This document shows, piece by piece, positions 11,265-60,232 of a stretch of DNA of 64,000 nt; positions within the stretch are counted from its first letter, which is position 1, and every line of letters begins with the position of its first letter. Source of the DNA: Chiloscyllium plagiosum (Eukaryota). The stretch covers positions 3,504,785-3,568,784 of the forward strand of contig NC_057756.1 of assembly GCF_004010195.1 (NCBI RefSeq), given 5' to 3'. The notes under the pieces were generated by a model. The model was given only the letters and a program-made list of their open reading frames with translations, searched no databases and was not told where the DNA came from. A program made the position numbers and the translations under genes.

Positions 11265-11285
11265 AAAACAAGGAGCTAAGAAAAA
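11265..11285 (+). CDS. 21-nt phase-1 micro-exon (xNKELRK) of a putative butyrophilin/BG-like host gene
   Basis: cattcctgttgttcccaacag|AAAACAAGGAGCTAAGAAAAA|gtaagt. Splice sites and length are conserved in the paralog at 38729. Confidence 0.75.
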
Positions 11286-13499
11286 GTAAGTTTGTTCCGA
11301 ATATATTCTCCGTCCATTTGCTTTTCAATTTGACTAGTTAATGGACATATCTTCACATTCGTCTTTCTCTGTTTAAAATGTTTCCACTTTTACACGCAAT
11401 TAAGATGTCTAAACCAAACCAAACCTCTAATTGTAGTACTTGAACAAGATACTTCATGGTTTCAATTCGATTTGTTTAATTTTATTTCACTGCATTTGAT
11501 TTGTCGAACATTGTTTCGACAGGGCATACATGCTCAAATGATACATCTTGTTAGTCCAATTCTTTTAATAACGTGAATGATATTTTTTAAAGAACTAAAG
11601 TACATTCGCTAGAATTAATTGAAAAACTGTGCCAGTCGAACCCCAGGATGCAGTATTTTATTCTTTGTATATTTCATAAATGGAGCTGAACAAACCTATT
11701 GTGTCGTTCTCACTTGTTCAGTGACTATGATGGATCTGTAGCCGTGTGATTCACGGTTTAAACTCAGAGGGATCACTGCTAATTTTTTCATTGTTGATCT
11801 TACAGTGTGTACACTTTGAATGAATGGTAGAGCCAACACTAACTTAGGAAACGCGAGCTTTGCCTTGACGTTTGGATGCTCTATCGAACAGTTTTAAAAA
11901 GGCACGTGATCAGAAGCTTCACATGTTGTACTTCGAAGTACGAGGTAACAATAACATTATACCTCACATTTGCAAACAAAGTAGAATGACGATCGAGTTG
12001 CTAATGCTGTGATATTCTTTCAGACTTTGATACGTTCCAACATAACTCAATGTAGTTTCATACAGGCCATTTTTCGTACCTACTCAGCAAGTTGCCAGGG
12101 GAAGAGAACATCTTCGGGAGGACAGTGATAGTTAAAGGACAGCTGCATCACACGATAATCCAGGTACAACTTTATGAACATAAAATAAGCCGGCGTTTAC
12201 ATGATGGAACTGGAATTACCTGAACAACATTACCTACCTTTTGATATATATTTAACCTTTAATCGTGTTCAGATAAGATATCATAATTTAAAAGAGAAAC
12301 GTCAACAATTTACAATCATTCCTGATCATTAGCTGGAAAAGTTGCCGCTGGCCACATTTTCAGAAATGTGTGACAGGTTTTGTTTTGAATCTTCAACATC
12401 TGAAATGTTTCAGAGCTTCTCTCTTTTATCAAAATGACTTATTATACATCAAATATAAAAGAACGATGAGAATCAGAAATTATATCAGTCACATCCGATG
12501 TAGTATTCAGCAAGTCTGCGAAAGAGAACAGACAAATGCAGACAAAAGTGATAAATTCATGGGAAAGTAACTTTTTAAAAAGAAAATCTGGGCAGATAAG
12601 GAAACACCTGTCAGATGCATTCGCATGGGTGAATACACAGACGAAACCTACAGCGTTGAGTGATGTACGGTGGCAGAAACTTTTGTGTTGAAGTGCACAA
12701 TTAATCAATGTGCGTGGGGAATGTTCAGACAATTGTTCAGAAGGTTTATGCGATAATTGTGTTTATAAATACAGGCATGCAATATAAAAGGAAATGATGC
12801 TTCACATGGGCTATTGAAATTAATTGCCATTGGTGTTTTTTTCCCAGCATAACCTCACAAAAATGTCGTTATCTCAATCAATCTCTTATCCTAAATAGAC
12901 TTAGTGAGTGTTCAATTAAACGTTTTACTGACATGATTCACGACGACATTCATGAATTTCAATTGCCATATTAACATCCATTGAAAACGTCCTCTGAATG
13001 ATCTGAAAAATGCATTTCCATGAATCTTTGCGAGAATCAAATTGTGTGATGAGAAAGTAGAAAGAATGCACTCCCTTTGCTGAACACAGATTGTCAATCA
13101 AAATGACATGACAAACGGAGTGTACTGAATGTACATTTACTGAGTGCACTGCCCTTTCCACGATTTTTATGTGCTTCCATCAATATGACTCAGCATAACT
13201 CTTTGGAATAAAGTACTTCTTTGGTTCTGCGTCATTATTCTCCAAACGTACAATCATGCACAAAGAGCTTTTGATTTATAGGAAGATACAATGAAAGAAA
13301 AGACAATGAGAGTTGGAGACAAGGACAATGACGGAGAGATGGATAGAGAAGAAATGCATCGTTTGAAGTTTTTTTAAAAAGTGTGACAATGATAGTTATC
13401 CACATTGACGGTGAAAACAATTCAGGTATCCTCATTGACGGAAAGTGCATAAGACACGTTCTGTTTTTTTTAAGTTTTCAAAGTCTACTGGTATTTCAA

Positions 13500-15480
13500 A
13501 TTCAACCAGACTGTGGTTGCTCCTACACAGGATCCCTCACTGTGATATCATCAATTAAATCTTCAAAATTAAATCAGGTTAGGTCTATGAAAGCTGGGTT
13601 ATTCGTGGCTTCCATCACATACTGCTCATTGAAACTATTGTAGAAAAACTATTGAACTCCTCCTCAAAGTTGCCTTGATTGACATTCTTTTGTCAAGCAA
13701 TACTGAGGGAAACACAAGGTGATAATTGCCATAATATTTTATATGCATTAATTATTTCTTTGTTTATCGCTTGCTTCACCATTGTGTTGTATTATTCAAT
13801 AGCTTATAAATTATGCTTATCAGTGACGTTTTCACACTAAATACTTATATTTTAACCAACATTAATGCAAACATTTTCTCCATAAAATCTATTGTAACTC
13901 TCACGACATCCCTGATTGCATTAATTAATATCGTAGCTACAGTACCTCAATTTCCTTCCTTTCAGTCAATCTGAATATTATTATGTCCCTTAATCCCAGG
14001 CATGAACACTTCGAAACATATCTATGTAATGGACACTAAATCATTCCTACCTGAGATGATTTCTGCTGTCATTTCATTTCACAAGTATCCAGTGTTGTGA
14101 GAAATGAAGAAATTCCAGTTTGTAAGCCTTATTTTTGAATCCTCGAAACCTCCACGAAATGCACTTTTCTTCTCAGATATTCTCATTTTTTGTCACGAAC
14201 TGGTTTCCACTCATTTTCTTTTTACATTCTTAAGATGCTTTGTTTTTACTAAGGACATCTTTCGCTATTTTCTTAAGCAGTCACCAATTCTTGTTGGTTC
14301 AGAACATCCCCTCAGATTCCCAATTATTTGGCAAATTAGCTTAAACTCCGCCAAACATTGCGGGAAAAACGACTCAAAAGCTATTGGTCCATTCACTGTT
14401 TGGGGGTGAACACCATCTCTGTTGAATAAGTCCCATCTTTCCCTGAAATCATCCCAGTTATTGAGAAATCTAAAGTCTTCCCGAATTCATCACTACATGA
14501 GTCACCGTTTGAACTGCTCAGCCTAACAATTTGTAGATACACGATGACATGTTATACATAATAAACTGCAGATTGCAACTTTCAATTCCTGGTTTTAAAC
14601 TTTGGTCCCCTTCTCTCAATTCAACCTTTAGGGCCTGATCCGTCCAACTCAAATATATCCACAGTGCAATCATGCATAAGAATCACTGACTGCTTCCCTC
14701 CCCAATACCCTTTCTATTTCTGAGGCTTCGTAATCTAAAGAATCCTGGCATTTGGGGGACACCACATCACCCTGTTGTGAAAAGCATTTGTCTATGTTAC
14801 TCACAATTGCGTCTCCTATCAGGACAGCATTCATTGCCGTTTGACTCTCGGTGCAGCTGAAGTCCCCACCGTGCTGCGGGTTTTGCTTTGGCTGCAATTC
14901 CCTGACACATTATCAACGTCAGCACAACTTAGCCAGAGTACTGGTTGCTGTGGGGATGGCCAGAGGGGAAATCCAGCAATACGTGCCTCACCTTATGCTG
15001 GCCTGTAACGTTACCCATTCCCACTCCTCCTGTTCGCTTTTACACGATGCATTAACCACGTCTTGTAACAGCTACCTTCAAACACCCATTCTTCTGGATT
15101 CTTCTCATTGCCTGTATAGAAGAGGTACCTCCTGTACACATGTTGCGCATTGCTACAATGAGCATTCAAAAACTTCCATACAAAACATATTGTTTACAAA
15201 ATCTGGACTGCCATCCTTTTAATTAATCCAAAATTACCCAATATAAATAAGTAAATCTAATTCTCATTTACACACTTAACAGTTTAAATTAGTATACTTA
15301 CTAGTTAACAGGTCATTCCATTGCAATAAAAAAAGATTTATACTCACCATTCATACACGAAATCACGTCGCAGGTTGTCTCTGATTTCACTCTGGGATCT
15401 TGCTGTTCTTCACCTCAGAAGCATTTTGTGCCTGACCAGATCCAAAGTCTTTGCCTTTCAACAGCTGCCAGCTCCATGTT
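13500..15480 (-). mobile_element. Old CR1-type LINE 5' part (5'UTR, decayed ORF1 esterase, start of ORF2)
   Basis: ORF 14670-14897 contains AVLIGDAIVSNIDKCF, matching AILIGDSIVRGTDRRF of the ORF1 at 2-886. Confidence 0.7.
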
Positions 15481-15589
15481 AAACCCCTGTAAGAATTCAA
15501 TATTCCTTTTTTTTTGCTGATTAGTGGAGTTTAGAAGCATGGGACCATTTCTGGAAACCAGAATCTTCTGCCATCCACTGTTCCGTCAA

Positions 15590-16360
15590 GATGACTGATT
15601 TGAAAAGTGTGGCATTAGAAAAGCACAAAATATCAGGCATCATTCGAGGAGCAGGAGTGTCGACATTTCAGGTATAATCCCTTCATCAGGAATGTTGAGG
15701 GAAGAGAGGTCAGGTAGATAAATACGGGAGTGGATGTATGGATGTTGGTAGGTAGCTGGGAAGGTGATAGGAGGATGCAGGTGTGGCACATTTACCATAG
15801 GTCGAGCAGATAGATTGGGTAGAAGAGTGAAAACGAGGACAGAAGAGGGTCGTGTCCAGTGGTCGGGTTTAATCTTTGATGAAGTATGCGAGATGAGATT
15901 TAAATACTCGTTACGTTGAGTTTGATGCAGTGTGGATGCAAGGTCCAAACGTGGAAAATCGGGCATTCTTCCTCTTTGATGAGTGGCTTTGATTTGACGG
16001 TGGAGCAGGCCCAGGATGTATTTGTCCTTGGGGAAATGGGAAGCCTGTTAAACTGGCCTGCCACATGTCAGTTGCTTAGTTTGGTGCTTGATTGCCAGTG
16101 ATGTTCACTAAAATTCTCGATGTGTTGGTGCCTTCCCTCGTCGATGCAGAGAGGTCCACATCATGAGCAAGGGACACACAGTGGATTAGGTGGGTGGATG
16201 AGCAGAAAAGTCTCTGCCCAATTTCAAAGTGCACTTGGCGACGTTGGACTGGACTGAGTGTGCAGGTGAGGGTGCAAGTTTTGCACATCGTGCAGCTGCA
16301 AGGGAAAGTGATGGGTGTGGATGCTGGATTGGTCTCCCTGATCGACATAATCAGAACTAC
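15590..16360 (-). mobile_element. Penelope-like element 3' remnant (GIY-YIG region + pLTR with hammerhead core)
   Basis: TFPCSCTMCKTC...QRLFCSSTHLIHCV resembles the Cys-rich linker before the PLE GIY-YIG domain. Minus-strand CTGATGAagggattatacctGAAAtgtc at 15662-15689. Confidence 0.7.
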
Positions 16361-16818
16361 CAGGAAAATATCTTCATACTACACTGAAAATAAGAAAATT
16401 ATTAAGTTGAAGTTTATACATTGAAGCTTCTATTAAAAGCTACAAGATACAGTTGAAACACCAATGAATTTCAAAATTATCAGATGCATGTAACAGACAA
16501 TTATGACATATATTTCATAAATGAAGAATTAGCACTTTTTGAAAAGTAAATAATTTATATTGTTAATACCTGGTGTTAATTCTCATTCATGGCTCTATAC
16601 AATAGTTCACATTTGCACATATATGAAATGCTAAAATCATAACATATTCTGTTTTGCACATCTATGCAAAGGCGCTGGAAGCCATTGATCCAATAATTCA
16701 CATTACATGATATGACCACCTTCTTGAAATGTTTGAAACTGCAATACTGACGTCACAGTACCACAGGTGCAGTAAATGAGTGTTACATATTGACCCTGTT
16801 CCCTTGTTTCCTCAACAG

Positions 16819-16839
16819 ATCTAGCAAAGCCGACTGGAG
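16819..16839 (+). CDS. 21-nt phase-1 micro-exon (xLAKPTG)
   Basis: ttgaccctgttcccttgtttcctcaacag|ATCTAGCAAAGCCGACTGGAG|gtaaga. Strong pyrimidine tract and donor. Confidence 0.75.
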
Positions 16840-18369
16840 GTAAGATATTACAAATTAGATTCGCGTTTTCTGAGGAATACATGAATATTAAAAATTGGTG
16901 ACCATTTCGCAAAATTTCCCAACGAAAAGGCTTGCATATCTCAGTGGAATTTCTTGGCACTTAACTGCACTTTGATTAAAACTTAATCGAGGTTGTTGAA
17001 AAACAACAATGTACTAAGCAGTATTTTCCCGTTGGATGTTGAAAATGAATGCTTTGTTCGCAATTTACCGTCTGTGCAATTCATTGAACCATGAACAGTA
17101 TGTGAGTGGCATCGAGACCAGAGATGGCAAAATAATTAGACCAATCATTGGAAAGAAATACAGATTGATATACAGACACGATGGTGTGTGATAATGAAAT
17201 TGATTATCTAAGGTGAATAATAAGGAATTATATTCAAGGTGCCATTAAAAAAAATATGAGTAAGCATGTCCTACATGTGACTGTGTACATATTTATTACT
17301 CTGTGTGTTTGAGTGAATGCGTGCGTGTGTCTGTGCATGTGTGCAAGTGTATGTATGTTTTCATGATTAATTGTTAGATTAATCAGAAAATGTGAATGAG
17401 ATAATAATAATTATAATCACACAAATGGTTCATCCTATTCTCTTTAAGCACCTTGTAATATATATTAATAACCCAGAAAGAAGATAGAACTGCAATACGA
17501 ATAACGGAAGGAAAATTCTACCTCAATAGCATTGGAGTTCGAGTTTGCATTGCAACTCTCGTTAATTAATGCGAAATCGAATTGTTCCGCCAAACAATTC
17601 CTTTCTACCACCTTAACAGTCATTTGGCTTCTGACGACTCAAAGGTACAAAAATATGCTTTCTTTAAATAATTAATTAAGTGCAGAGTTATGATCAAGAA
17701 TTCTTAGACAGGAGATGGCAGAGTTTCAAGAAACTCTACACATTCATATCAGGATGATAGGAATTTGAAAACAAAACTTCAATGAAATCAGAAATTGGGG
17801 TTGGAAATATTTTCAGCACCATCACAATTTTGTAACTTTCATGTTTTTTGTTCTGCATACGTTTCTGAAAGTTTCTGCTGTTCTTTCCACAATCATTTCT
17901 TCTATTTCTTCCATTGAATTCTTTCATTTTAATGCCAAACAAAGGAGCCCTTGGCATCAACAGCAATAATAAAAGTTCACTCCGTTGACTGCAATTGATT
18001 TATGCTATTTCAGTTTAGAAATCTCTCATGTATCAAAGTATTATGGAAGATTTCAACTTTGTCAAAACATTTATTATGTAAGGTAAATCTTTTTTTAAAA
18101 GCGCATCTCTGATTAACCTGCATCAATTATCCAATTGATGGCCACGGAATCTGTATGTGTATCTAACCAATAGAAAATCAGAAATGCTCATTTGTTCTGA
18201 TATGTATCTTCCAGCGCTTATGAAGAGAGACATATCATCGCCAATGGGTCTGCGACAAATTATTAAATGTCCAAGGCTGTATTCCACTTGAACTAATAAT
18301 CCAAAATCTAATACGTAATAAAATATCTATGGAGTTGTAGTGTCTCAAATGAAATGATGATTTGTAAGT

Positions 18370-18930
18370 ACTGGTTTTTGACCTGGGTGTTGAAAGTTAA
18401 AAATCAAAGAGCACCAGGTTATAGTGCAATAGGTTTGTTTCGAAGCACTGGTCTTCGCAACGCTGCCTCTTCATCAGGTGGTTGCGGTCGACCAAATCGT
18501 AAGATACACAATTTTTCGCAAACGTTCACAGTGTGGTGTAACTGAAAGTATATCTTGAAAAAGACCTGAATTGATGTTAAATCTCTCACCTTCGATAATG
18601 ATTTGGAGATGCCAGTGTTGGACTGGGGTGCACAAAGTTAAAAATCACACACCAGGTTATAGTCCCACAAGTAAAGTTGGAAGCAGTACCTTTCGGAGCG
18701 CTCTCACAACCACCTGATGACGGAGCAGCCCACAGAAAGCTAGTGTTTCCAATTAAACCTGTTGGACTGTAACATGGTGCTGTGTGATTTTTTTTTACCC
18801 TTTTAGAACGATCGTGTTGTTTTCAGTTCTTTCATATGTAAAACCCACAAATCTTTCAAAGTTACATTCTCAACTGAAAATTAACAATACGTGTCATGTC
18901 GGCCCAGATGATGCATTGAACGTGAGAGTG
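18370..18930. mobile_element. Penelope-derived pLTR cluster with inverted arms
   Basis: aaagttaaaaatca(c)a..caccaggttatagt occurs at ~18393 and ~18634, with its reverse complement at ~18757-18795. CTGATGA cores at 18714-18720 (+) and 18471-18477 (-). Confidence 0.65.
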
Positions 18931-19508
18931 ATTCTATGGAATACCTAAAGTACACAAACCTGACATCCCACTCAGACCCATAGTATCACTACCAGGGACA
19001 CCATCATACGAACTGGCCAAAGAACTACAACAGAAACTAAAACACCTGGTCAGCGGATCCAAACACTCTATACAATCAACACAGGAATTCTTGGAAATCA
19101 TCAGAAATATACACATAGACAAAGAAGAAACCATGATATCATTCGACGTGACGGCACTGTTCACTTCGATTGACAAAACCCTAGCCAGAGAAACAATAGC
19201 CAACCTACTGGACATACAGAACAGAAAACAGGACGCTGAACCTATCAACAAAGACGGCATACTTAAACTACTGGACTTGTGCCCCACAACACACTTCACA
19301 TTCAACAACCAGATATACGAACAAATCAACAGAACACCCATGGGATCACCAATCTCGGGACTCATAGCAGAGGCACTTATGCAGTAGAAACAGTCCTACC
19401 ACAAATTCAACCCAAACTCTAGGTCAGATATGTCGATGACACGTTTGTAAACATTAAAAACACGGAAATAGAAAAAAACACACCAGATCATCAACGCCAC
19501 ACTCACAG

Positions 19509-19943
19509 NNNNNNNNNNNNNNNNNNNNNNNNNNNNNNNNNNNNNNNNNNNNNNNNNNNNNNNNNNNNNNNNNNNNNNNNNNNNNNNNNNNNNNNNNNNN
19601 NNNNNNNNNNNNNNNNNNNNNNNNNNNNNNNNNNNNNNNNNNNNNNNNNNNNNNNNNNNNNNNNNNNNNNNNNNNNNNNNNNNNNNNNNNNNNNNNNNNN
19701 NNNNNNNNNNNNNNNNNNNNNNNNNNNNNNNNNNNNNNNNNNNNNNNNNNNNNNNNNNNNNNNNNNNNNNNNNNNNNNNNNNNNNNNNNNNNNNNNNNNN
19801 NNNNNNNNNNNNNNNNNNNNNNNNNNNNNNNNNNNNNNNNNNNNNNNNNNNNNNNNNNNNNNNNNNNNNNNNNNNNNNNNNNNNNNNNNNNNNNNNNNNN
19901 NNNNNNNNNNNNNNNNNNNNNNNNNNNNNNNNNNNNNNNNNNN
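19509..19943. other. Assembly gap (435 N)
   Basis: Run of N. Confidence 1.
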
Positions 19944-20158
19944 ACACTACTATCAGAGGGCAAGCCAAACAGAGAACAGCCAGGGAATTCCTAGAGGCAT
20001 GGCATTCATCCACAAACTCCATCAACAAACACATCGACCTGGACCCAATATACCAACCACGACAGCGGACAGCTGAAACTGACAACCGGAAGCGGCAGGG
20101 ACAGACCACTATAAACACCGGAGGAAACATCAAAGAAGCGCTTGGCAGGAGGCTCCCA

Positions 20159-20200
20159 AGCACTGATGATGTCGCCTTGCCAGGGGACGAAACGTTTGCA
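20159..20200 (+). ncRNA. Minimal hammerhead ribozyme motif in Penelope pLTR
   Basis: gca-CTGATGA-t-gtcgcc..ggggac-GAAA-cgtt-tgc: conserved core, stem II, palindromic ACGT stem III, short stem I. Confidence 0.7.
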
Positions 20201-20429
20201 ACAAAAACTTCCAGCTCGGCGAACAGAACCACAACATCATACTGTAAAATTGAATGTCCATCCATAACGACATTACTTGTCTCTAAGTTATTTTGAAACA
20301 TTCCCTCATCATACTGTGATACAATTATCTAATATGTATTCACATTAAAACATCTTGACATAAGAAAACAATACAGTTTTTCTTTCTTCCACTTATTTGT
20401 GCACATTAAGTCAGAGACATGAAAGGACA

Positions 20430-21420
20430 GGAATAGAACCATCAGCCCAATTCATCCAAACGACTAAGTTTACAAATTTGAAACAGACCCATTTAGCAGT
20501 TTTGCTTCATTTACCAAAGAACCTTTCATATTCATTGACCTGAACAAATATCTTTAAATGTTTTACATGTACCTGCACGTATGTCTTCCTCTAACAGTTC
20601 AATCCACATACAAAGCGAGTGGGATTAGCTGGCAAAGAGTGGGGAGATGCAATGGCCTCGTCTTATCCCTGCCATACTGTGTATCCTGAGAGCCAGTCAA
20701 TGTTTTCGGGACCCACGTTCGAATTTTGCCACAGCAGACAGTGGCATTTGAAATCAATAAACATTTGCAATTACGATGCTAATGATGGCCATATATCTAT
20801 TGTGCATAGTCTCGAAAGTCCTTCTGGTTGACTAATTTTGCCACCTTTATCTCGTCTGGCGCCAAAGTGACTTCTGATCAACAGCAGTTTGATTAACACC
20901 GAGCTTGTCACTGGGCAAATGAGATGGAAAATATTCTCATCCTGTGAAAACATAGACCTTCTGTTTGAAAGCATTGTCCATCAGGTCCCTTTTAGATCTT
21001 TCTTTTCTCACGTTCAAGGTATGCTTTCTTTCTGTTCACTCCCCTAATGTTGTGAAAGGACTTCTGCCATTCATCTGAGCTGTGCCGTCGTCATTTCCCA
21101 AACCTCGACAACGTGATGCCTCAACATCATTGAGTGCAGTGAAGAAAGTCATACTCTTTCCTCGTTCTACACGCAACCCAAACTTTCAATGCAGGTGACG
21201 TGTTTGTAAATATTTTCTGCGCCCTCTTGATTTTGTTAATAAACATGCCATACCCGAGGTTCCAGAATCATCAACAGCACTCCAAAATGACCTCAACAGG
21301 GTCCGACTCAACAACGAGATGACGTCCCAACTGGAATATGCAATGATCTGAGAAATGAAGGCAAGTGTGTCAAAGGGTTGCTTAACCGTTCTGTCTAATA
21401 TCGGCAAAACTTTCAAATAA
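20430..21420 (-). mobile_element. Old CR1 3' fragment, interrupted at ~20610-20920 by a degenerate SINE-like sequence (possibly Deu-domain type)
   Basis: ORF 21186-21494 has KQPFDTLAFISQIIAYSSWDVISLLSRTLLRS (CR1 ORF2 C-terminal pattern). The insert has gtggcatttgaaatcaataaa...tctggttgactaat. Confidence 0.55.
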
Positions 21421-22059
21421 TTTGGAATTCGATCTATGGAGCAATCGTGATAAACAATGTTACAAGAATTTATGTATTCATTTGCATTGGACATGCAAAT
21501 GATGAATAAATTTAGGGTGAAACACTTTCTCTGCTCCTCTCCAACTACCCGATCATCGATGTAAGGTTTTTGGCACTTGTTTATTCACGCATGAAGTTAA
21601 GTAATCATTTCTGCTCTGTTTCATTTTCTCTCAATCTTACATCCGACTTCAACAGTTTCTGCATTTTTGTTTATTCTACAACAGCACACTACGTAACATT
21701 TGGTAGTTATATTCGAGATACCAGAAAAGAATGCAATCATATGTTGATTCGATTTTGAAAGTTTTTATTTATTTCGTCGCCCTTATCGATATTGCAAGTT
21801 GCTAATATCTTCCTAGACCTGAACCTCCAACCTCCCTTTTAGACATACTTACATTTTGGTGAATTATGCGTTTCAACAGCCTACAAAATATATTTATTTC
21901 TGCAGCTGTAAACCATCTGCAAGTATTTCAATTACTTTTTTTTTCAATTCCAAGCATTCACGATGAGTTTACTTGGAAGTATCGTTAGTGAAACAGGCTG
22001 AAATGCACATAAATATAAATCACGAACTTGGATCAAATTCACAACTTTTTGGTGAAATT

Positions 22060-22260
22060 CAACCATCTCGTATTCATCTGCAGGAAAAAATAAAAGTTAG
22101 CGTTTCGGGGTAGGTGACTCTTCATCACTTTTTTGTTCTTCTTCTTGCGATGAACAGTCACTTCATTTGAAAAGTTAACTCTTGGTCTCCCAACCGACGT
22201 TGCCAAACCCACCGTATTTCGTGAGCAATTCGCGTTTTTGTGTCAGATCTCAAACATACA
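22060..22260. mobile_element. Decayed fold-back Penelope-derived element
   Basis: Inverted arms gttagcgtttcggggtaggtgactcttcatc / gatgaacagtcacttcatttgaaaagttaac with degenerate hammerhead cores. Confidence 0.55.
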
Positions 22261-25200
22261 GATTTCTTTATTCTAATGCAAGGTTGTGTCATATGAATGT
22301 AACGAATCAACTTTTATTGGACTTTTTTTTCTAAACCTGTTTTTTTCTAAGCTCCAGACAGCTGAGACATTCTAAAAGTGTTAAGATTTTATTGGACATC
22401 TGCAGTAACTAGCAATATTTCATTGGTTCTCAAAATATCAATAAATAATTAGAAACCAATTAGGAATATTACTCAAACCACTAACTTCGCTGTTCGATTC
22501 TGATTAGTTGAATATTTTGAGCTCGGATTGTAAAGAATAGATTACAAATAATGATGTTGAAACTTTTTTTTCATGGCAACTATTCATCTTATTCTTTCAT
22601 CTGTCAAATTTTGAGACTCAGAAACAGACATAAAAAAAGAAGGGCAGATATAGTTAAACAAATGATGTTTGAATAAAGAGAGGCTGGTAGTTATCATTAA
22701 CGTTGTTAAGTAGTGGTGTCAAACTCCGCTGGGAACCTGCATGAAGTAAGTGAACGCTGTGTTGAATATTGCATCTCAGGTCATTCGCTTCAACTCATGG
22801 TGTGATAGTATTGTTGGAAGCAGCGTTGAAATAAATTAATTTCGTTAGTTTATATTTTGTTTTTGCAATTCCTTCTTCTCGAAATATTTGACAGATGAAA
22901 GAATGAATGAGGGAAATGTTAACGACTTCGGAGGCGAGTGGATGAATATTAAATAAGACAATGAATGCCGGGTGGATTTCATGAATTTTCCGGTGCAATA
23001 ATGAAAGAGAAGTTGAAAATATGAGGAAGAGAGACATAAAATGTGTTTAGTGAGTACCCTGAACGTCAACACCAGAAAATCAATTGTCGAGTCCCGACGC
23101 TACTCTATTTGCAGAGTGTGTTGGAAAGTAAATTTTAGATGAAAGCATTGCGCATTTGATGTGAGAGCCTGTAATTAATGTTCAAAATCTACGCTGTGGT
23201 GCCTTTCATGCAATGTCTTTTTTGGGTATGTACCGATAATATTTCATTTTCTATGCAAATTACGTACATACTAATAAGCTACTGATAGCGTTTTGCTGAT
23301 CATAGCAGGACAAGACAATGGATGTGCTTGTATGGTTCATGGACTACTTTGCAAGATATCTGACACTTATAAACTATTCCATTCTGAACTGGAATTCCAT
23401 TATCATGGCGACAAAATCAACATCTTTGCTCAAATTGTATTGCTGAAGGGTCACATACTTTGTTAATCATGACAAGGTTTCTATTCTTTCTGTTCTGAGA
23501 AGCATGCCTCTATCAGATGTCTAAACCTGATATTGGTCAAGGATCTTTTTTTTTTCTTTCATACACAATGTTTTCAACGACGAACAGTAAAGGAGTAATG
23601 GCAAGTCCATATTCAGTGTACAACCTTTTCTGATTAAACAATGCATTGTCACATTTTTGGAGGTGTGCCTTGCCTAAAACAGACACGCCACGCAGCAGTT
23701 TTTTTTTTAAGTAGGCAGTAATTCGTCAAATCAGAGTGGATTTACATTTTTATGATTGCTAATACACAGGGTTGGATGGAGTGGAGACAAAAATAAAAGA
23801 ATGAAATCAAAAAGGCACAAAACTATTCCGATTTGGTTCTTCTTGGTTTCATTTTTTTGTGTACCAAGACTCAAGTGGAAAAAATGCATATGCAAGATTC
23901 CGGTTATATGCACTGCATATTGTTGTTTAAAGGTCGAACGTGGCAATGAGAACACGTAAAGCCTATTACGGTCATCTGCTCCAAATCTCAGTTAGTTCAC
24001 ATGAAATGATGGATAAGGCTCTCATTTAAAGAAAGAAATAGAGTACACATTACTATTGTATAGTCATACAGATTGTCTGATCAAAAGAAGAAATAGCTTT
24101 TCCCGTCCGGAGACAGATATCGTGCGTAAGACCACATCATATTTTTTCAAGGTTCCGAAAAGATTCAAGGACCAATGGTCGCATTTGAAGTTGCGGCAGT
24201 GAAAAATAAGCTTCCATTAGAATTATGTTTTTATTAGCGTGATAGCCAGAAATCAAGTCCAACTGCATAAATTAAGTAAAATAATTTCATAACACGACCT
24301 AGTCAAATGCATTTTACACTTTAGCCACTGTTGCGACCTCATTAACAAGTAAAGATTTTGTACACATCCAGAATTTAAATTAAGATTTTATTGATCGCTG
24401 TAGTGTAGACATTCATTTTAAATGGCAACCGATTGTCAATGGAAAAAGAAAAGTTAGCACATCTTTCATAAAATACTTTTAAAAATGTATTTAAAATCGA
24501 TTTGATTGCTACAGTGAATAATGTAAAAAGATGGCCTGGAAGGCTTAATTGCAAAGACATTGTCGACACGCAAATCAATAGAACTGTGATATTATATAGA
24601 GTCTTTTTCGTAAGCATTGATGTTTATTGACTATTCACTAGTATCACACACTGTAAGGTTGATATTGGATTTTGCAAAGTATTTAATTTTCTTTATTCTA
24701 TGCTCCAATTAATGTTCCAACGCTATTGTACTTCCTTTTACATTGTTATTCAAAAACTTGATTCTTGAATGCCAATTTTTGTGTTACTCATTCTGATATT
24801 GAGAACAGTTGCCTGTTCATACTTTGCATGCTTTTGCTGTAAGAAAGTTTTCCCGGCTTCGCTTCAACTTCTTCTTTCACATTTATTAACTTTTGATTGC
24901 CACTTTGCTGATAATTGTCTACTTTTAAATTAAATCCTTTGTGTTCAGTCAACGCATGCTTGCTAGTCAAATGGAAAAGAATTTGGTGTGGTTCTGCGAG
25001 GAAGTTTTCAATCTTCAAAACTTCCCTTTTGGTCATGCTATTCATATTTTTAAAGAAGGAAAATGGCATGGATGAATATATTCTGACATCGCAGGAACAC
25101 AAATGAGGATATCTCTTTCACACAGTATGGTTTTAATGCAAACGCTCATAAATGTTTGCAGTTATCAATAAGTGATTTGTTTTGGGTTATGTAATTAAAC

Positions 25201-25398
25201 TTCGTAACTACAGTTTGGCATTGATGTTATTGCGCTGCTTTATGTGAATCTATGCAGTGTTGAATGGAGTAATTTAGCTAATGCCTCCAAAAATCTCCAT
25301 TAAATTCTTTGGATTTGTTACCATTGGATGCGCTTAGATGTGCATGTGGGATTTAATTTTGTCGGGGAATTTAATCTGTTACTTTTGTACATAAACAG

Positions 25399-25419
25399 AT
25401 CTGCCAAAGTGCAAACAAG
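25399..25419 (+). CDS. 21-nt phase-1 micro-exon (xLPKCKQ)
   Basis: ttacttttgtacataaacag|ATCTGCCAAAGTGCAAACAAG|gtaaga. Sequence-related to the 16819 exon. Confidence 0.72.
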
Positions 25420-26484
25420 GTAAGATTTGAAATAAAGTGTTTTCCTGCAATGTGTATACTTTGACAAAACGTTATGACAGAGAAAGCAAGTGCAATACTT
25501 TCTACATCGACTCAGAGGGATAGAAAACTCAATTATAAAATGTAATCCCTCCTATTTCAATGATTGCAATTTATGAGCTCCTATTGAAGTGTCTTTTCAA
25601 ATTGAATTATTTTTGGCTATTTCTATGCCTAAGTATAAACTTGCAAAATTTATTTTGCTTTTCTGTTGGCGATATTTACATAATTGATAGTCAATGGGTG
25701 AGAATTGGGTGGGGGCGGATGGATGGCAAGGACAGAGAGAAAGAGAGGGACAGACAGAGAGAGACAGTAAGATACAAAGAGAGCTGTTCTTATTTCTTTG
25801 AGCACGCTCGTGTCAAAGGAATACTTTTTGAAATCTATTGATATGCTGAATTCTGCATAGAGTCACAAAACACGTTGTAAATGTGTTTCTTGTTTAAACA
25901 CTATCGTCTCTCAAAAATGACCAATTTCATTTGATAGTATTTTCTGCCGAGAATTTGCAAACATTTTATAACTCGTACTTAAATAGTTCCTTCTTCTTTC
26001 TAAAATATCGCTGTAAGCTGTTTTGTTTAGAATACTCTACTTTTCATGATGAGAAAGAATTTGGCACTAAATCTGAAGTTAGTAGGTACTTACTTATGCT
26101 GTGGGACAAAACTAAATGTGCATGACCAATGCGATTCTGCAAGTGAATCGAATTTAAGAGACAGATATTTATTAGTGAGCGAAATAACTTTCCATACGTA
26201 ATGTTATGATTATGCTTAAAAATCAACATTCCTTTACTTGTTTCACCGCCCAATTTTTTTACGACTCTCTTTCAATGGAAGTCTCAAGAAAGGGGTAATG
26301 TCCTGAATAATTTGTTGCTAACCTTGACATATTTGGATAGATTTGCTTAAGACTGTTTTTCAGAAAAAAAGTGTGGAATTGTTCGAGAAATTGGTTTCAA
26401 TTATATGCATGGTGTCGGATGAAATTGCTCAGCAAGGATATAACTTGATTGCAAATTTATCCAATACTTCTTTTCCGTGTGCAG

Positions 26485-26505
26485 ACCGAAGAAAGTTACG
26501 AGAAG
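26485..26505 (+). CDS. 21-nt phase-1 micro-exon (xRRKLRE)
   Basis: tacttcttttccgtgtgcag|ACCGAAGAAAGTTACGAGAAG|gtgagc. Confidence 0.75.
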
Positions 26506-26874
26506 GTGAGCGATAGTCGCGTTTTATCCCGAAAGGTGTTTGATTGATGCACATAAAAATTATTGTCAGAAGTTATGTTAAGCAACTTCCTCCAACATGA
26601 CATAAATAACATACCCAAAAAATTGGAGACAAAAGGCTGAGGTGAGAAGGAGTAACTTAATGGATCAGTACGAGTACGAAAATGCTGTTAAGGATGTTGA
26701 ACAAATTGGAGGCTGAAATATCCCATGCCATGATGATATACATTTGAAGCATGATTTCAGAAAATAAAACAGACACGTTGATTATCTTCTTGTATTGCAT
26801 TACCTGTATTGGGACAAACAGATTGGAGAGGACTTATTGTAATGCTTTTATTATAAAAAAAAAGTAGAATATGA

Positions 26875-27835
26875 TTTAGATGTTTCAGTAAGAACAAAAA
26901 AGATGGTAAAAGAGGGGGAGGTGTGGCATTGTTGGTCAAGGATATTATTACAGGTGCAGAAAGGATGTTTGGGTACTCGTTAACTGAGGTAGTATGGACT
27001 GAGGTTAGAAACAGGAAAAGAGATGTCACCCTGTTTGGAGTTTTCTATAGGCCTCCAAATAGTTTCAGAGATGTAGCAGAAAGGATAGCAAAGATGATTC
27101 TCGATTGGAGTGAAAGAGACCGGGCAGTTGTCATGGGAGACTTCACATTTCCAAATATTGACTGGAAATATATATTACGAGTACTATAGATGGGTCAGAT
27201 TTTGTCCAGTGTGTGCAGGAGGGATTCCTGACACAGTATGTAGACACGCCACCAAGGGGCGAAGCCACATTAGATTTGGTGCTGGTTAATGAGCCCGGTC
27301 AGGTGTTAGACTTGGAAGTAGGTGAACACTTTGGTGATAGCGATCACAATTCTGTTATGTTTACTTTCGTGATAGAAAGGGATAAGTGTATACCACTGGG
27401 CACGGGTTACAGCTGGGGGAAAGGCAATTACAATGCGATTAGGCAAGATTTAGGAAGCATAGGATGGGGACGGAACCTGCAGGGGATGGGCACATTAGAA
27501 ATGTATAGATAATTCAAGGATTAGCTCCTGTGTAAGTACGTACCTGTCAGGCAGGGAGGAAGTTGTAGAGAGCGGGAGCCATGGTTTATGAAGGAAGTGG
27601 AATCTCTGGTCAAGAGGAAGATGAAGGTTTATGTTAGGATGAGATGTGAATGCTCAGTTAGGGCGCTTGAGGGATACAGGGTAGCCAGGAAAGACCTAAA
27701 GAGAGAGCTCAGAAGAGCCAGGAGGAGACATGAGAATTTGTGGACGGATAGGATCAGGCTTTCAATAGGTATTTAAGGAATAAATGGATGATGAGAGTAA
27801 GATTAGGGCCAATCAAGGGTAGTAGTGGGAACTTG
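26875..27835 (+). mobile_element. CR1 ORF2 fragment (AP endonuclease region), disrupted
   Basis: GVFYRPPNS, VVMGDFTFPNIDW, ATLDLVLVNEPG, HFGDSDHN motifs. Confidence 0.9.
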
Positions 27836-28650
27836 AGGGGACCTATTCTCTCCCTAGTTACTCTTTTGGTCTTTATGTATTTGTAAAACCTCTTTGGATT
27901 CTCTTTAATTATATTTGCCAAAGCAATCTCATGTCCCCTTTTTGTCCTCCTGATTTCGCTCTTAAGTATACTCCTACAACTTTGAAAGTCTTCCAAGGAT
28001 TCACCCGACGTATCCTGTCTCTATGCTTCTTCCTTCTTTTTTCTTAACCAAACCCTCAATTTCTTTTGTCATCCAGCATTCCCTACACCTACCAGCCTTT
28101 CCTTTCACCCTAACAGGAATATACTTTTTTTCTGGATCCTTTTCATCTCATTTCTGAAGGCTTCCCATTTTCCAGCTGACCATTTACCTGCGAACATCTG
28201 CCCTCAATCAACTTTTGAAAGTGATTGCCAAATACCGTCAAAATTGCCCTTTCTCCAATTTAAAAATTTATCTTTTAGATCTGCTCTATCCTTTTCCATC
28301 ATTGTTTTAATTCTAATAGAATTATGGTCGCTACCCCAACGTGCTCCCCCACTGCCACCTCAGTCATCTGCCCTGTTTTATTTCCCAAGAGTAAGTCAAG
28401 TTTTGCACATTCTTTCTTAGGTACATCCACATACTGAATCAAAAAAATATCTTGTACACACTAAACAAATTCCTTTGCTTCTAAAGTCTTAACACGATGG
28501 CAGTCGCAGCCTATGTTTGGAAAGCTAAAGTCCCCTACCATAAACAACTTTTTTTTCTTACAGATCACTGAGATCTCCTTACAAGTTTGTTTCCCAATTT
28601 CCCGCTAACGATTAGAGGGCCTATAATACAATCCCAATAAGTTTATCATG
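27832..28650 (-). mobile_element. Second CR1 ORF2 fragment (endonuclease region, different subfamily), inverted
   Basis: LKSEIRRTKRGHEIALANIIKENPKRFYKYIKTKRVTRERIGPLK on the minus strand, with upstream YYRP and SDHN remnants. Confidence 0.88.
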
Positions 28651-31254
28651 TGGATAATGAATTTATTGCGTTGTAATACTACATAACATGAACATCCGCA
28701 GATCTCTGCCATCACAATTAAAACACGTAACAAGGAAAATACCGTTTACACTGCAAAACCTTACTTGCAAGTAGCCATAAATTCATGCTCACATGCACAC
28801 GTCAGTGCATATTTTGTCTCAACATACGTTTACACAGGGATGTGACGATTTGTTTTTTTTTCTGTAAATACTGAAAGGGAATCAAATCATCGGAATTGTC
28901 ACACAATACGTTTTTTTTTTAAAATTAGTCCAAGTTGACATTGAACACAGTCATTGAAAAAAAATGTAAGAAAGAGGAAGTTTGCCTCTTCTCTTTTTCA
29001 GTTAAGGAAGCGTCAAAAGAATGGAAAGTTTTGGAATTGAACTCATCATCTCATATACTGGTCAGTAGTAATTGAATATAATTGCTTCTCATCCTCTGCA
29101 AACAATATATTTGTTGACAGAGAAAGAATGTGGATATCCAGTTAGTACTACTTGGAAAAATTCGCATTTATATATCTGAAATGGCCACTTTGGAATTAAA
29201 GACTGATGACATTGTTTCATCAACAGACGACATTTGTATTTTCTTTGAGTATTGCAAAGCAATTTCAACCATTATGTAATCAGTACGTCGGGATTACAGG
29301 AAGAAAAGTAAGCATTTTTGAATGCTCTGCATTTGATTTCGGGATCTTTGTTGACACCTTAGTGGTCACGAAATCAACCCCTAAGGTACCCGAACAGTTG
29401 GAAGCAAAATAAATCACATTCCCTGCTCACTTCAATTGTAACTCTACGAATACGTCTGGAACTTAGCAAATACCATGCAATACGAGCACCAGGAAACTAA
29501 TTGCTTTATCAATGCTGAGCTCAACATTATCTGTTACAATCTGTTATCTCTACCGAATTTAGAAGGCACACGCGACCACGCTAATGCGGATCTATTGCTT
29601 GATCTCCCGCCTTCTTCAGTGGTGCCAGATTAAACAACCATTACATGCATTGCTCCCAAAGACAGTTACTTTCCACAACAGTCCTCCACACCATATAATG
29701 AACAGTATGTGAAAGCTAAATGCTATCAGAATTACTATTATTACAGATGCCCCGATGAAAAATTTCAAACACGATATCCAACATCACTGGAACAAACAGG
29801 ATACACCTCGCTGATTCCGTATCAATTACTACTTTCTTATTCACAGTAACAATGTTCAAACGTCTGTATTATGAAAGAATTGTCATATTGGATGTTGGTT
29901 GCGTCATTCAGAAGAAACATTAAATGGAACTCCCCTTTTGGAAACGAGATGTTCTCATATTTGTAGAAAACGGTGGCAGACTGAAAATCTGCTGGAATTG
30001 TTATATCGTAATGAAATACCGACACATTAGACACTATCAGAAAAATGTACCAACTTATTGATATGACAAAAAAAAACTATTCCTAAATCCTCTCGATAAG
30101 GATTCCGTGCTCTTTAAATTCAAAATATATCTCCAAATTATGTAGTCTTCTATTAAGTGAATTATGCATTCCTACTTGATCTCTCTACGAGGTGAAAATG
30201 AACTCCACGTTATCGAGGTCATCTTTACACCAGAATTTTCCAAAAATGCAATATACTTGTGACTCTGCGTGACATCTTTCACGTTTAATCAGAGTAGAGG
30301 GGAATAGTAAACAAAATCCCAGCTTTCATTAATGTGTTTCACCGCTCCATCGGTACTATTGTACTCAAGGCCACCTCTCAAACCGACAAGTATGCCATGT
30401 TCCTTCTTATTCACTTACCAAACTCTCCAGTTTCTTTAGACATTTCACCATGCTTAAGAAAATACTCTGTTGCAATATAGCCATTTTAAATTAATCTGTT
30501 AGCCCTGAAATAATGTATTGTATCACAATTTTGTCAATTAAATTCCACTTCTTCTTATTCTGTCCTTTCAATTAGTTCATTTATATCCTCTAGTATTCTG
30601 ACACATTCATGCTCGTCACTTGAAACACTACCAAACGTCTTCTTAAATGCAAACGGACTTAAACATCTCCTTTCTTAATCTCTATATTCAACATGTTTTT
30701 TGCAATCATATATAACTCAAAACTATGTCTTCTAAGGCCAAGGAAAATTACACTTTGGCCATCAGCCTTTGATTGCTGCCACGAATGCAACTGTGAGTTC
30801 AGTTTGCAATCATAATCTGAAACACTTACTTTCTTTTTTGACCAACACTCATGTTAATTTGTCTTGAAATCCTTACCAAAATACTTTGAATTCTCTTTAG
30901 CATAGAACACTTATCCAGGCATCTCGTTCTACCACCCCAGAAAATCCTCCAAAAAACCTGTTAGACTTTTTTTCTTTGCAATGGACAAATACATGGTGAA
31001 TGTGTTTGATTAATCCTTGCACATATAATTCTTCCCTTTCCTTATGTGTTTCTTTTTTTACCTTTCCAGCTCTAGTCGTTTTGTTGTCATTGTGTTAAAG
31101 TCGTTGATTTATATTTTCCTGCATCTTCTTTCTCAATTCTTGAATAATGTTTCGATATTAACCATCTTGCAGTCAGATGATCGATTCTGATGTGTACAGA
31201 GACCATGTGAACATGGAAAATTTCCTGTTTCATCTGGAAAACTATACAGCTCCT

Positions 31255-38728: not shown

Positions 38729-38749
38729 AAAACGAGAAGTTAATAAATG
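38729..38749 (+). CDS. 21-nt phase-1 micro-exon (xNEKLIN), paralog of 11265-11285
   Basis: atttatgttgttaccaacag|AAAACGAGAAGTTAATAAATG|gtaagt. Confidence 0.75.
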
Positions 38750-48420: not shown

Positions 48421-48460
48421 GACTCAAATTTAAAAGCAGATATGAAGTAAACAAGCCAGA

Positions 48461-51370: not shown

Positions 51371-51668
51371 AAAATATTAACCTAATTCTCATTAACAAAG
51401 CTAAACTATGAGCTAGTCAGGAAAGTAATTTAAACAGGTTATTCAATTAGATTTTTTTTTAAAAACTAGTTTTACTCACCGCTCATACAACAAGTCACTT
51501 AACAGTTTGGCGCATATGTCAATCAGGCCTCTCAATAAAACTTCTTTCTCCTTTATTATTTCCCAAATCTCTGCCCTCCAACCGGCTTCAAGTCAAGCCT
51601 CCAGTCCCTCCTCTATAAGAAATCTGTCTTCTTCGTCGAGAAGGACTAAAATAAGGGAACCATTCCTG

Positions 51669-52375: not shown

Positions 52376-52439
52376 AACCATTCCTGAACGCCAGGATATC
52401 CTGCAATCCACTGTTGGTCGTGGTGACACAGTTTAAAGG

Positions 52440-53935: not shown

Positions 53936-54739
53936 TGACTGAGCTGACATCTGCAAGAATGCACTTCACTGACATCTCTCTGCCGCCCTCTGTTTGACTT
54001 CCATTTCAGACGTGAATTCACGTTTCTTCCTCTTTAGTTTTAAATGATAGCGTGGTGTGTAAACTCGAGATATAATCCATCGTAACAACTTGATGTACAA
54101 TTCATATTGGCACAACAGACACACAGGAAATGTGTAAGTGTGGAGCCCATGTTCAAGACCTTTTATTCTAAAGATTAAAAAAACAATTCATTTCTGATGG
54201 ACAAGAGAAAGCATAATTTAAATAATTCTTAGCTTCAACTAGTAATTGTTCTTTTGACAAAGATAGCAAAATAGATGGAAATGACGGAGGATCATTGCAA
54301 TACTTTGAAGTGTGATGAAACTGTCGGATTGTAATGCAATGAGTTGTGGGGGTGTAAACAGTAGCAGTAAAATGCATTTGCCATTTTCTCCTAATTAACA
54401 GATTGGTATATATTTAAGTAGGAATTGATAGTTGAATATACTCTTAATTCTTGAGCAGTCAAAAACAACTATTTGTACAATCAGTCAACAAAATCCATAT
54501 CAGTGCACTTGTGCATTAACCTTCCCCCTATTATGATAACTGAAACACAATGATACTTGTCTACATATATACAAATGTATCCATATCCATATTTCTCTTC
54601 ATGCAGGTATAAGAGGAGATAAATTGATAATACTGACCTGTTACCACATATGCATTCTCTTCTGGTGAAGCTCTATAAGATTTAATTAGCCATTACATTT
54701 TGAGATACCAGGCCAGCTTAATTGTGAGTTTCTGCATTT

Positions 54740-58990: not shown

Positions 58991-59127
58991 GAAATCATTG
59001 TCCATTAAGAATTTATTTTAAATGTTCTTTTAAGTATTATACTGTTAGCACTAACCTAAATTTATCCATGACAGACAAGCTGACAAGTACCTGAAATCAT
59101 TCAACAATTTAATTACAGTACTTCACT

Positions 59128-59350
59128 CGTTGTGGTTCTGTTCGCCGAGCTGTGAATGTGTGTTGCAGACGTTTCGTCCCGTGTCTAGGTGACATCTTCA
59201 ATGCTTGGGAGCCTCCTGTGAAGGGCTTCTGTGATGTTTCCTCCGGCATTTATAGTGGTTTGTCTCTGTCGCTTCCGGTTGTCAGTTCCAGCTGTCCGCT
59301 GCAGTGGCCGGCAAATTGGGTCTATTAAAAAACTCATCAACCTGGACCCA
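59128..59350 (-). mobile_element. Penelope pLTR fragment of the same family as 20040-20240
   Basis: Reverse complement of 20040-20235 (gttgtggttctgttcgccgagctg...); hammerhead core degenerate (tTGAAGA...GAAAcgtc). Confidence 0.88.
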
Positions 59351-60211
59351 ATGCAGTGGAACATAATCGTTTAACTATTATTGTTCACAGACTGCAAGGA
59401 AAAAAAATATTTTTGAAGTGTTTTGTCTATGTCTACTATAATTTTGACCAAGTGTCAATATTGATACAGCAGTCCTTTTCTGAGTTAGGATTGTGAATAT
59501 CATCGAAGGGTAGGAGGCCTAATTGTTTCCATGTTGTACTGGTCCTTTGAGATGGAAGTGGTTCTGGATTTATAATTGCTGTTTCATGGTTTTTTTGCAA
59601 ATTTCTTCAATGTGTCCTGAGGTGAGTTCAAAATGCTGCTGCTGAGCGTCAGTTGTGGATAGAGTGAATTCTCTTTCAACGTTGCCAACAAAGTGGGCTA
59701 CATTGCGTTGGATGGTTTCAAGTTAGTTGATCACCGTCAACATTTTACTCATTCTGGCATATGGCTCATATCCAACTTGTAATTGAATAGAAGAGATTGG
59801 TCATACTGCATTCTGAGTTATCATTAAAGATGTCGATAACGGAAGTATGTAGAGTTCATTCCTTACAGTTTGGACATCACAATATCTACAAGTGCAAAAA
59901 AAAATGTACCCGATAATATTATTTTGCTGAGTTTAAACATTTCTTGCTACCTGCAATGACTGTCATCACTTTGGAGCTGCTTTTCATCTGAAATATTAAC
60001 AATTACACATTACGGTACAGCTTCCTTTACTTTGCGATTTGTGTACAATGCCACTTGATTGCCTATGTTTCAACATAAATGCATGTACATCAGTAGCTTC
60101 GGTCACTTAATAAATCTGAGCACTTCGTATGCAATTGAAGTCATGAAACTTTGTTCTTATGTGCTTAGTAAATTGGGATGACTGTTCACTCTCGTTATGT
60201 TTTGGTAACAG

Positions 60212-60232
60212 ATGCGACGCTACGACAGCAAG
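60212..60232 (+). CDS. 21-nt phase-1 micro-exon (xATLRQQ)
   Basis: ttcactctcgttatgttttggtaacag|ATGCGACGCTACGACAGCAAG|gtaagc. Confidence 0.75.

Follow-up and report, generated by a model that had tools for sequence, protein, structure and literature searches.

When 21-nt exons follow one another at kilobase distances, gene finders and standard RNA-seq aligners seldom detect them, so that a locus built in this way can escape notice even after genome annotation. Whether this stretch of 64,000 nucleotides (the window) holds such a locus, and to which gene family it would belong, was the question raised by an earlier note, which had read six short segments as the tail region of a butyrophilin (BTN)/BG-like receptor. 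The six segments were found to belong to a much larger array on the + strand with one coiled-coil heptad per exon-like unit, and the butyrophilin/BG reading received partial support. Judged from the DNA sequence, they are probably coding micro-exons of a very long + strand transcription unit, or of two neighbouring ones, on contig C47. The features of the window are given below, with scores from a position matrix trained outside the window.

11265..11285, + strand: candidate micro-exon, Asn-at-a type heptad, 21 nt, phase 1; 21.1 bits
16819..16839, + strand: candidate micro-exon, Pro-containing heptad, 21 nt, phase 1; 27.3 bits
25399..25419, + strand: candidate micro-exon, Cys-at-d type heptad, 21 nt, phase 1; 40.6 bits
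26485..26505, + strand: candidate micro-exon, Leu-at-d type heptad, 21 nt, phase 1, GTGAG donor; 24.7 bits
38729..38749, + strand: candidate micro-exon, Asn-at-a type heptad, 21 nt, phase 1; 25.3 bits, also aligned with paralogues
60212..60232, + strand: candidate micro-exon, Gln-rich heptad, 21 nt, phase 1; 18.8 bits
11286..60211, + strand: five presumed introns of 5533, 8559, 1065, 12223 and 21462 nt with retroelement remains (Pfam, read depth)

Each segment was re-read at its coordinates as the earlier note had described it. A pyrimidine-rich tract runs into CAG at all six acceptors (AACAG in five, GTGCAG in one), and the donors are GTAAG at five segments and GTGAG at 26485. The phase-1 join is free of stops, with the junction codons as claimed, and reads xNKELRK-NLAKPTG-DLPKCKQ-DRRKLRE-ENEKLIN-DATLRQQ. 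The assignment to non-repeat DNA held for units 11265, 16819, 25399 and 26485, the four compared with DNA contigs, where depth was at the unique level (~9-25). DNA contigs span units 11265, 25399 and 26485, and the contig at 25399 matches without any difference. Repeats marked by very high read depth occupy window positions 18338-20338 and 26342-28999, and the only Pfam domains in the presumed introns were pieces of reverse transcriptase and endonuclease.

Counts of AG-to-GT distances were used to ask whether the 21-nt spacing exceeds chance. Within the window alone the proposed excess was not significant, with 11 occurrences of AG-N21-GTRAG on the + strand versus 2-12 for other lengths from 6 to 99. 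The excess became large when 264 kb were sampled, where YAG-N21-GTRAG occurred 37 times on the + strand versus 6-24 times for lengths of 9-59 and 13 times on the - strand. With at least 9 of 15 pyrimidines required in addition, 314 kb yielded 29 sites at 21 nt versus 0-8 at each of 63 other lengths, and 4 at 21 nt on the - strand. The position matrix was trained on 29 units, all outside the window, a partly circular procedure since the first 20 seeds were picked partly for open frames. The six units of the window ranked first with this matrix (18.8-40.6 bits), versus 8.2 bits for the next + strand site, a - strand maximum of 9.4 and a maximum of 13.8 in 20 first-order Markov windows. With that next + strand site at only 8.2 bits, the matrix found no seventh unit in the window, and other 21-nt AG..GT spacings there (e.g. 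9917 and 18478) scored low and were taken as chance. Five new units were recovered from a held-out 50 kb at 21.9-35.8 bits, versus a - strand maximum of 3.1. Across 35 units, the phase-1 frame contained 0 stops, versus 24 and 9 in the other two frames.

The array extends on the + strand of C47 from 2,384,706 to ~3,798,333 (1.41 Mb), and the part holding the window spans 0.46 Mb. The sampled DNA amounts to 354 kb, including 20 kb 5' of the first unit, with ~1.06 Mb of the array span outside the sample. It contained 35 intact units that were inspected; seven more are pattern matches, and the total is probably about 50. Spacing between units varies from 0.4 to about 40 kb. A dense run with 0.4-3 kb spacing lies at 2.385-2.404 Mb, a block that is unique in the genome except for one short repeat. 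Three patterns were searched through the whole genome (3.56 Gb), and the + strand of C47 received 13 of 16 matches for the first (control, 1), five of six exact matches for the second and all four matches for the third, for which up to 2 mismatches were allowed. These C47 matches span 2.399 to 3.798 Mb.

Every inspected unit (n = 35) is 21 nt long and in phase 1: its first two bases complete a codon opened in the preceding unit, its last base opens another, and each unit adds exactly one heptad. The earlier proposal of frame-preserving heptad micro-exons of a host gene, hidden in long introns filled with transposable elements (TEs), is supported. The consensus of the 35 heptads is acidic (g), Leu (a), any residue, Lys (c), Leu/Cys/Tyr (d), Gln/Lys (e) and any residue. 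Hydrophobic residues occupy position a in 25 units and position d in 29, an acidic residue stands at g in 30, and 31 have Gln, Lys or Arg at e. Cys is found at d in nine of the 35. The canonical heptad pattern across units makes it likely that their predicted product forms a coiled coil. These statistics contradict the earlier doubt about a continuous coiled coil, the two Pro-containing heptads being exceptions. If spliced serially, the units would encode an alpha-helical rod that may pair as a parallel coiled coil through its a/d seam and g-e' charge pairs. Inclusion or skipping of a unit would shift the rod length by one heptad without breaking the frame, because all units share a common phase; that any subset keeps the frame is simple arithmetic. 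Since chicken BG cytoplasmic tails are built in the same way, the locus may work like a BG tail. If it is expressed, the spliceosome would face an extreme test in defining dozens of consecutive micro-exons across retroelement-rich introns of 1-40 kb. No RNA run was listed for window positions 20000-29999, and RNA reads over window positions 9000-28999 (two single-cell poly(A) runs, ~2 and 6/100 reads, and a possible RNA contig set, compared alongside one DNA run) covered repeats only; both results are blanks and give no verdict on expression. A CpG-island scan of 314 kb for an internal promoter was uninformative, with one weak 400-nt stretch at window position 144551 and a second next to an N gap.

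A quite possible origin, though one falling somewhat short of probable, is the cytoplasmic-tail region of a butyrophilin/BG-like receptor of the immunoglobulin superfamily (IgSF), with leader, Ig and transmembrane (TM) exons upstream and possibly B30.2 downstream. In butyrophilins, every heptad has a small exon of its own. The array agrees with this reading in the length and phase of its exons, in heptad chemistry and in having grown by duplication. Chicken BG tails are encoded by serial 21-nt exons whose boundaries split codons, according to the text available from PMC4046983, and heptad repeats downstream of the transmembrane domain are described for butyrophilins, a family reported in cartilaginous fishes, in the available part of PMC12841164. 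The BG-like architecture claimed by the earlier note stood, but membership in the family is not supported so far, as no V-set, C2-set, PRY or SPRY domain occurred in 427 + strand ORFs over the sampled 354 kb, 5' flank of the array included. No leader or terminal exon was found in this sample either. Phase-matched conventional exons were also sought in 30 kb around the first unit, where six acceptor-donor pairs 30-450 nt apart were found, none with an open frame, and so no transmembrane-type exon was found in this stretch; such an exon could lie further upstream. A 5' exon hunt at C47 2.3645-2.4045 Mb returned retroelement ORFs only; for the window's own gene, the DNA immediately 5' of 3.339 Mb would have been the better place to look.

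Four genome-wide searches, with V-set (best 150 of 1319 candidates), C2-set_2 (150 of 302), PRY (150 of 292) and SPRY (150 of 293), placed nothing in the 2.0-4.5 Mb interval of C47, a point against the butyrophilin/BG reading within that scope. Elsewhere on C47, the best 150 V-set candidates included one match, at 10.2 Mb, which is nectin-like, and the best 150 C2-set_2 candidates included 13, all at 5.69-10.21 Mb, of which the one inspected is nectin/PVR-like. The nectin-like exon shares 99% identity with an annotated bamboo-shark protein, which supports the cartilaginous-fish origin given in the earlier note, and the cluster was rejected as part of the heptad gene. Nor did a downstream B30.2 exon emerge nearby: among the best 150 SPRY and PRY candidates, the single C47 match lies at 4,577,660, 0.78 Mb beyond the last unit. 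This exon at 4.578 Mb was likewise rejected, its best relatives being TRIM-like and distant (27-35% identity). Should Ig-like exons be found upstream, long heptad tails of the BG type, described to date in birds, would reach back to cartilaginous fish, and the history now accepted for the butyrophilin/BG family would change.

Should the upstream exons prove not to be Ig-like, the one-heptad-per-exon design would have arisen twice. An undescribed non-immunoglobulin gene for a long coiled coil, its rod made wholly of heptad micro-exons and convergent with the BG tail, is a tentative alternative on the unlikely side. The searches that found no Ig or B30.2 exons in or near the sampled parts are consistent with it, as is the confinement of the array to one locus in the genome-wide pattern searches. 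Cys at d would fit an extracellular or secreted rod stapled by disulfides, and a cytoplasmic tail equally. Against it, Ig exons could hide in the sampling gaps, and genes other than those of the BG/butyrophilin family are not known to have serial 21-nt heptad exons; a full-text literature search by phrase found none either. A bolder version, which is unlikely, is one 1.4-Mb gene (C47 2.385-3.80 Mb), not of the BG/butyrophilin family, that for hundreds of kb would consist only of roughly 50 heptad micro-exons encoding a length-adjustable, possibly disulfide-stapled rod of ~350 residues. Were it true, the rod would be assembled through some fifty consecutive micro-exon splicings, no vertebrate gene would be known to have a longer run of micro-exons, and the BG tail design would have been invented independently.

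The duplication history of the array bears on whether the units are still in use. Blocks of several exons were duplicated in tandem as the array grew, and a trio of Asn-type, Cys-type and Leu-type units repeats about every 30-40 kb. Flanks of unit 11265, which occur at only two genomic places, are 70-74% alike to those of the units at 38729 and window -12160, and unit 25399 shares 72.5% identity over 298 nt with the unit at window -50148. Unit 26485 has paralogues at window -17198 and -49090, and the unit at -110083 is of the same type as 60212. Old duplicates have retained their exon cores and splice sites better than their flanks: in seven pairwise comparisons, identity was 82% at -20..-1, 75% in the exon and 80% at +1..+8, all gap-free, versus 60-66% with 174 gap columns in the distal flanks. 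A tandem acceptor at window -52850/-52847 allows 21 or 24 nt, and no other 24-nt units were seen. Some copies have decayed, the donor being lost at window -49090, the acceptor absent at -31244, and a copy near -40000 reduced to 18 nt with a GC donor.

These decayed copies could suggest that the whole array is a relic, its units derived from a once-functional tail and now spliced into no mRNA, a reading that we consider quite improbable. It would also fit the codon-position test for purifying selection among paralogues, in which synonymous differences were not in excess: of the 20 codons that differ, 18 encode another residue. Any selection would be on the pattern, the length and the splice sites rather than on sequence. 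The heptad profile likewise lacked a protein match: an alignment of 54 columns, with one read-through ORF as first row and the heptads beneath, shared words with 2747 candidates, none of which reached E <= 10, in a collection that includes annotated proteins of the same species. This evidence is weak, since profiles of seven columns score low. Against decay of the whole, AG, GT, 21 nt and the open frame are kept in 35 of ~41 inspected copies despite the diverged, indel-rich flanks, and the heptad pattern persists across very divergent unit types. Chance matches or a transposable-element cassette, to which the raw window count gave some room, are refuted for practical purposes by the strand- and length-specific excess in wider samples, the held-out and leave-window-out matrix tests, the genome-wide concentration of pattern matches on C47 and the two-place flank of unit 11265.

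Coding micro-exons in a very long transcription unit, the preferred reading, invite comparison with known systems. For the micro-exon genes (MEGs) of Schistosoma, whose exon skipping can generate protein variants, the likeness is one of mechanism only, with no homology implied, and the shark locus does not belong among them. In the available part of their description (bioRxiv 10.1101/2023.06.21.545858), MEGs encode small secreted proteins through exons of 3-81 bp and introns of up to about 5 kb, and they share with the shark array mostly very short symmetric coding exons, far longer introns and a frame kept on skipping. They are flatworm genes with varied exon lengths and, in that text, no heptad periodicity, whereas the shark array is a vertebrate locus of uniform 21-nt units.

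Butyrophilins are closer in having heptad repeats (PMC12841164; PMC4046983), but in the portions of these sources available only 'a few' heptads precede B30.2, whereas the shark array has dozens and, among the best 150 candidates per search, no B30.2 within 0.78 Mb of its last unit. The closest likeness is to chicken BG tails, as described in the available text of PMC4046983: tandem 21-nt exons encode one heptad of about seven residues each, with split boundary residues and a predicted alpha-helical coiled coil. There, the 57 sequence groups into which 358 exons fall are a mark of duplication, exon copy number is variable, and alternative splicing or read-through alters tail length. The shark locus differs in that Ig-V, transmembrane and 3' UTR exons were not found in the sampled DNA and that 24-nt units are absent, bar the one tandem acceptor. 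It differs above all in scale, with units 0.4 to about 40 kb apart across 0.46-1.41 Mb, and with at least 35 units, probably about 50, compared with 13-36 such exons per BG gene (PMC4046983).

Six 21-nt segments on the plus strand of the window, starting at 11265, 16819, 25399, 26485, 38729 and 60212, had been described in the earlier note as heptad-encoding micro-exons from the tail of a butyrophilin/BG-like receptor. Sequence inspection confirmed all six with the anatomy described there. A pyrimidine-rich tract ending in CAG (AACAG in five of the six) precedes each segment, and the donor that follows is GTAAG, except for GTGAG at 26485. None of the six is interrupted by a stop in phase 1, and the codons spanning the junctions yielded the residues originally given. 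Single-copy depth in a DNA run confirmed the assembly at 11265, 25399 and 26485. In the same run, window positions 18338-20338 and 26342-28999 were very high-copy retroelement pieces (summed contig depth >100,000), the first of which encloses a run of N at 19509-19943. RNA reads in window 9000-28999 fell on these two repeats only and have no bearing on expression.

The AG-to-GT distance count proposed as a check did not reveal a 21-nt excess within the window: 11 pairs were found at 21 nt, with 2-12 for each remaining length in the range 6-99, which was not significant, and 5 versus at most 4 after a pyrimidine filter was added. Because the window-only count was not significant, the sample was extended to 314 contiguous kb by adding the flanking 100 kb at both ends and then another 50 kb on the upstream side. 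In the initial 264 kb, the count of YAG-N21-GTRAG was 37 on the plus strand and 13 on the minus strand; lengths 9-59 gave 6-24. When at least 9 of 15 pyrimidines were also required, the 314 kb held 29 matches at 21 nt versus 0-8 at each of 63 other lengths, and 4 on the minus strand. With 20 units as its training set, a position matrix identified three further units (26.5-35.1 bits; minus-strand maximum, 9.3), and after retraining on 23 units it found five new ones in the previously unseen 50 kb (21.9-35.8 bits; minus-strand maximum, 3.1). When training used solely the 29 units that lie elsewhere than in the window, the original six took exactly the top ranks at 18.8-40.6 bits, versus 8.2 bits for the next site, at most 9.4 on the minus strand and at most 13.8 in 20 Markov windows. 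In total, 28 intact units were present in the 314 kb, from window position -147671 (negative positions lie upstream of the window start) to 157765. The initial observation is confirmed, and the array is far larger than was first seen.

To determine its extent, the whole 3.56-Gb assembly was searched with three IUPAC patterns built from unit subtypes, with reversed patterns as controls. Pattern 1 gave 16 matches at up to three mismatches (control, 1), 13 of which were on the plus strand of the same contig (C47, NC_057756.1) between 2,399,425 and 3,798,333; the window occupies 3504785-3568784 on this contig. Pattern 2 gave 64 at up to one mismatch (control, 46), with 14 on C47 plus, including five of the six exact matches. 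Pattern 3 was at background overall at up to three mismatches (47 versus 52), and at up to two mismatches all four of its matches were on C47 plus. As C47 constitutes 0.3% of the genome, the array is limited to one locus and one strand. A 10-kb sample at 2,394,500 contained six units spaced 0.4-3.3 kb apart, in a block unique in the genome apart from one short repeat:

G000:C47:2397384-2403335 (sampled piece L028:2885-8836), 1.1 Mb upstream of the window: dense block of six heptad units, several with Tyr at d

The adjacent upstream 10 kb held one further unit, at 2,384,706, and no units were found in the 20 kb upstream of that. Altogether 35 intact units were inspected, and seven others are known from pattern matches alone. 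Since the patterns recovered 13 of the 28 units of the 314 kb, the whole array would comprise roughly 50. None of the three patterns matched between 2,725,787 and 3,339,215; given this gap, the locus may represent two genes, at ~2.385-2.73 Mb and ~3.34-3.80 Mb, the second containing the window.

Over the 35 aligned units, phase 1 contained no stops, versus 24 and 9 in the other two frames.

Residue classes by position in 35 aligned units
Position 1 (split codon), register g: Asp or Glu, 30/35
Position 2, register a: hydrophobic, 25/35 (Leu in 20)
Position 4, register c: Lys, 20/35
Position 5, register d: hydrophobic, 29/35 (Leu 13, Cys 9, Tyr 5)
Position 6, register e: Gln, Lys or Arg, 31/35

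Together these residues make up a canonical a/d heptad, acidic at g and basic or polar at e, as is characteristic of coiled coils that pair as parallel dimers. The doubt raised earlier about a coiled coil was not upheld, as the two Pro-bearing heptads of the window are exceptions to a canonical a/d pattern over 35 units.

Chicken BG genes, members of the butyrophilin family, are described in PMC4046983 as carrying 13-36 serial 21-nt heptad exons each (358 exons in 57 groups), with split boundary residues, alternative splicing and read-through. Heptad repeats in butyrophilins are described in PMC12841164, which also reports the family in cartilaginous fishes; within the literature collection searched, no paper combined butyrophilin, shark and heptad. 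The exon architecture of the array matches this description, and by analogy it may belong to the BG/butyrophilin family, an assignment we regard as plausible, though somewhat less likely than not. Against it, the defining receptor domains were not found in 427 plus-strand ORFs from 354 kb sampled at the 1.41-Mb locus (279 of ≥75 aa, with 4 crossing locus borders dropped, and 148 of ≥70 aa), whose matches were solely to reverse transcriptase, integrase, endonuclease and GDSL-esterase. A scan of 30 kb around the first unit found no conventional phase-matched exons. Genome searches for V-set, C2-set_2, PRY and SPRY (best 150 candidates each) placed nothing on C47 at 2.0-4.5 Mb, an absence that is weak evidence. 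Thirteen of the best 150 C2-set_2 candidates were on C47, all at 5.69-10.21 Mb, and the single locus inspected, at 10.206-10.208 Mb, carried nectin/PVR-like V and C exons (sampled piece L033:45-500 and L033:1765-2199). Its V exon matched a Chiloscyllium plagiosum nectin-2-like protein at 99% identity; close orthologues occur in ~15 other sharks and rays. The sole B30.2 exon on C47 among the best 150 candidates lay 0.78 Mb beyond the last unit:

G000:C47:4577486-4578019 (sampled piece L031:187-720), plus strand: lone terminal B30.2 (PRY-SPRY) exon, 177 codons ending in a stop

Its nearest relatives, at 27-35% identity, were TRIM-like or 'bloodthirsty'-like, and no shark orthologue was among the protein-collection matches listed. 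Favoured by the failure to find receptor parts in the sampled DNA, with the BG-like exon architecture against it, an unrelated coiled-coil gene seems rather unlikely.

Another contig, C37, carried the majority of the PRY and SPRY exons among the 150 scored, at 9.08-9.46 Mb and 27.5-34.4 Mb. This is a very large B30.2 expansion, of TRIM and/or butyrophilin type, where the ordinary butyrophilins of this shark would best be sought. GDSL-esterase ORFs (E ~1e-13), adjoining endonuclease and reverse-transcriptase ORFs, presumably correspond to ORF1 of a LINE family:

Window 2-904, minus strand: GDSL-esterase ORF
Sampled piece L021:762-1496, plus strand: GDSL-esterase ORF

A heptad profile matched no protein at E <= 10 in a protein collection including the annotated proteins of this species, a seven-column profile being a poor probe; the absence hints at an unannotated gene.

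The unit types recurred in order as a set of Asn-type, Cys-type and Leu-type, which indicates duplication of multi-exon blocks.

Recurrences of the set (window positions)
-50148/-49090/-40000
-17198/-12160
11265/25399/26485/38729

Several decayed copies were also present in the 314 kb, of which the third listed could either still serve as a six-residue 'stutter' or be dead:

Window -49090: decayed copy, donor lost
Window -31244: decayed copy, acceptor lost
Window ~-40000 (sampled piece L002:1487-1640): Asn-type copy cut to 18 nt by a 3-nt deletion, with GC in place of GT in a donor whose context is otherwise consensus

Maintenance was assessed from seven pairwise alignments within three paralogue groups.

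Identity and gap columns by region
Distal flanks: 60-66%, 174 gap columns
-20..-1: 82%, 0 gap columns
Exon: 75%, 0 gap columns
+1..+8: 80%, 0 gap columns

These values fit selection on splice signals and exon length. Among differing codons, 18 of 20 altered the residue, which counts against constraint at the sequence level; the heptad pattern is kept and not the sequence. Weighed between the decayed copies and these conserved regions, a decaying relic is improbable.

The array is best read as a probably functional series of heptad micro-exons encoding a coiled-coil rod and working like a BG tail. One unit could be spliced in two lengths:

Window -52850/-52847 (sampled piece L007:7150-7176): tandem CAG-CAG acceptor, allowing a 24-nt or a 21-nt version

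This tandem acceptor recalls the chicken BG exons of '21 or sometimes 24' nucleotides.
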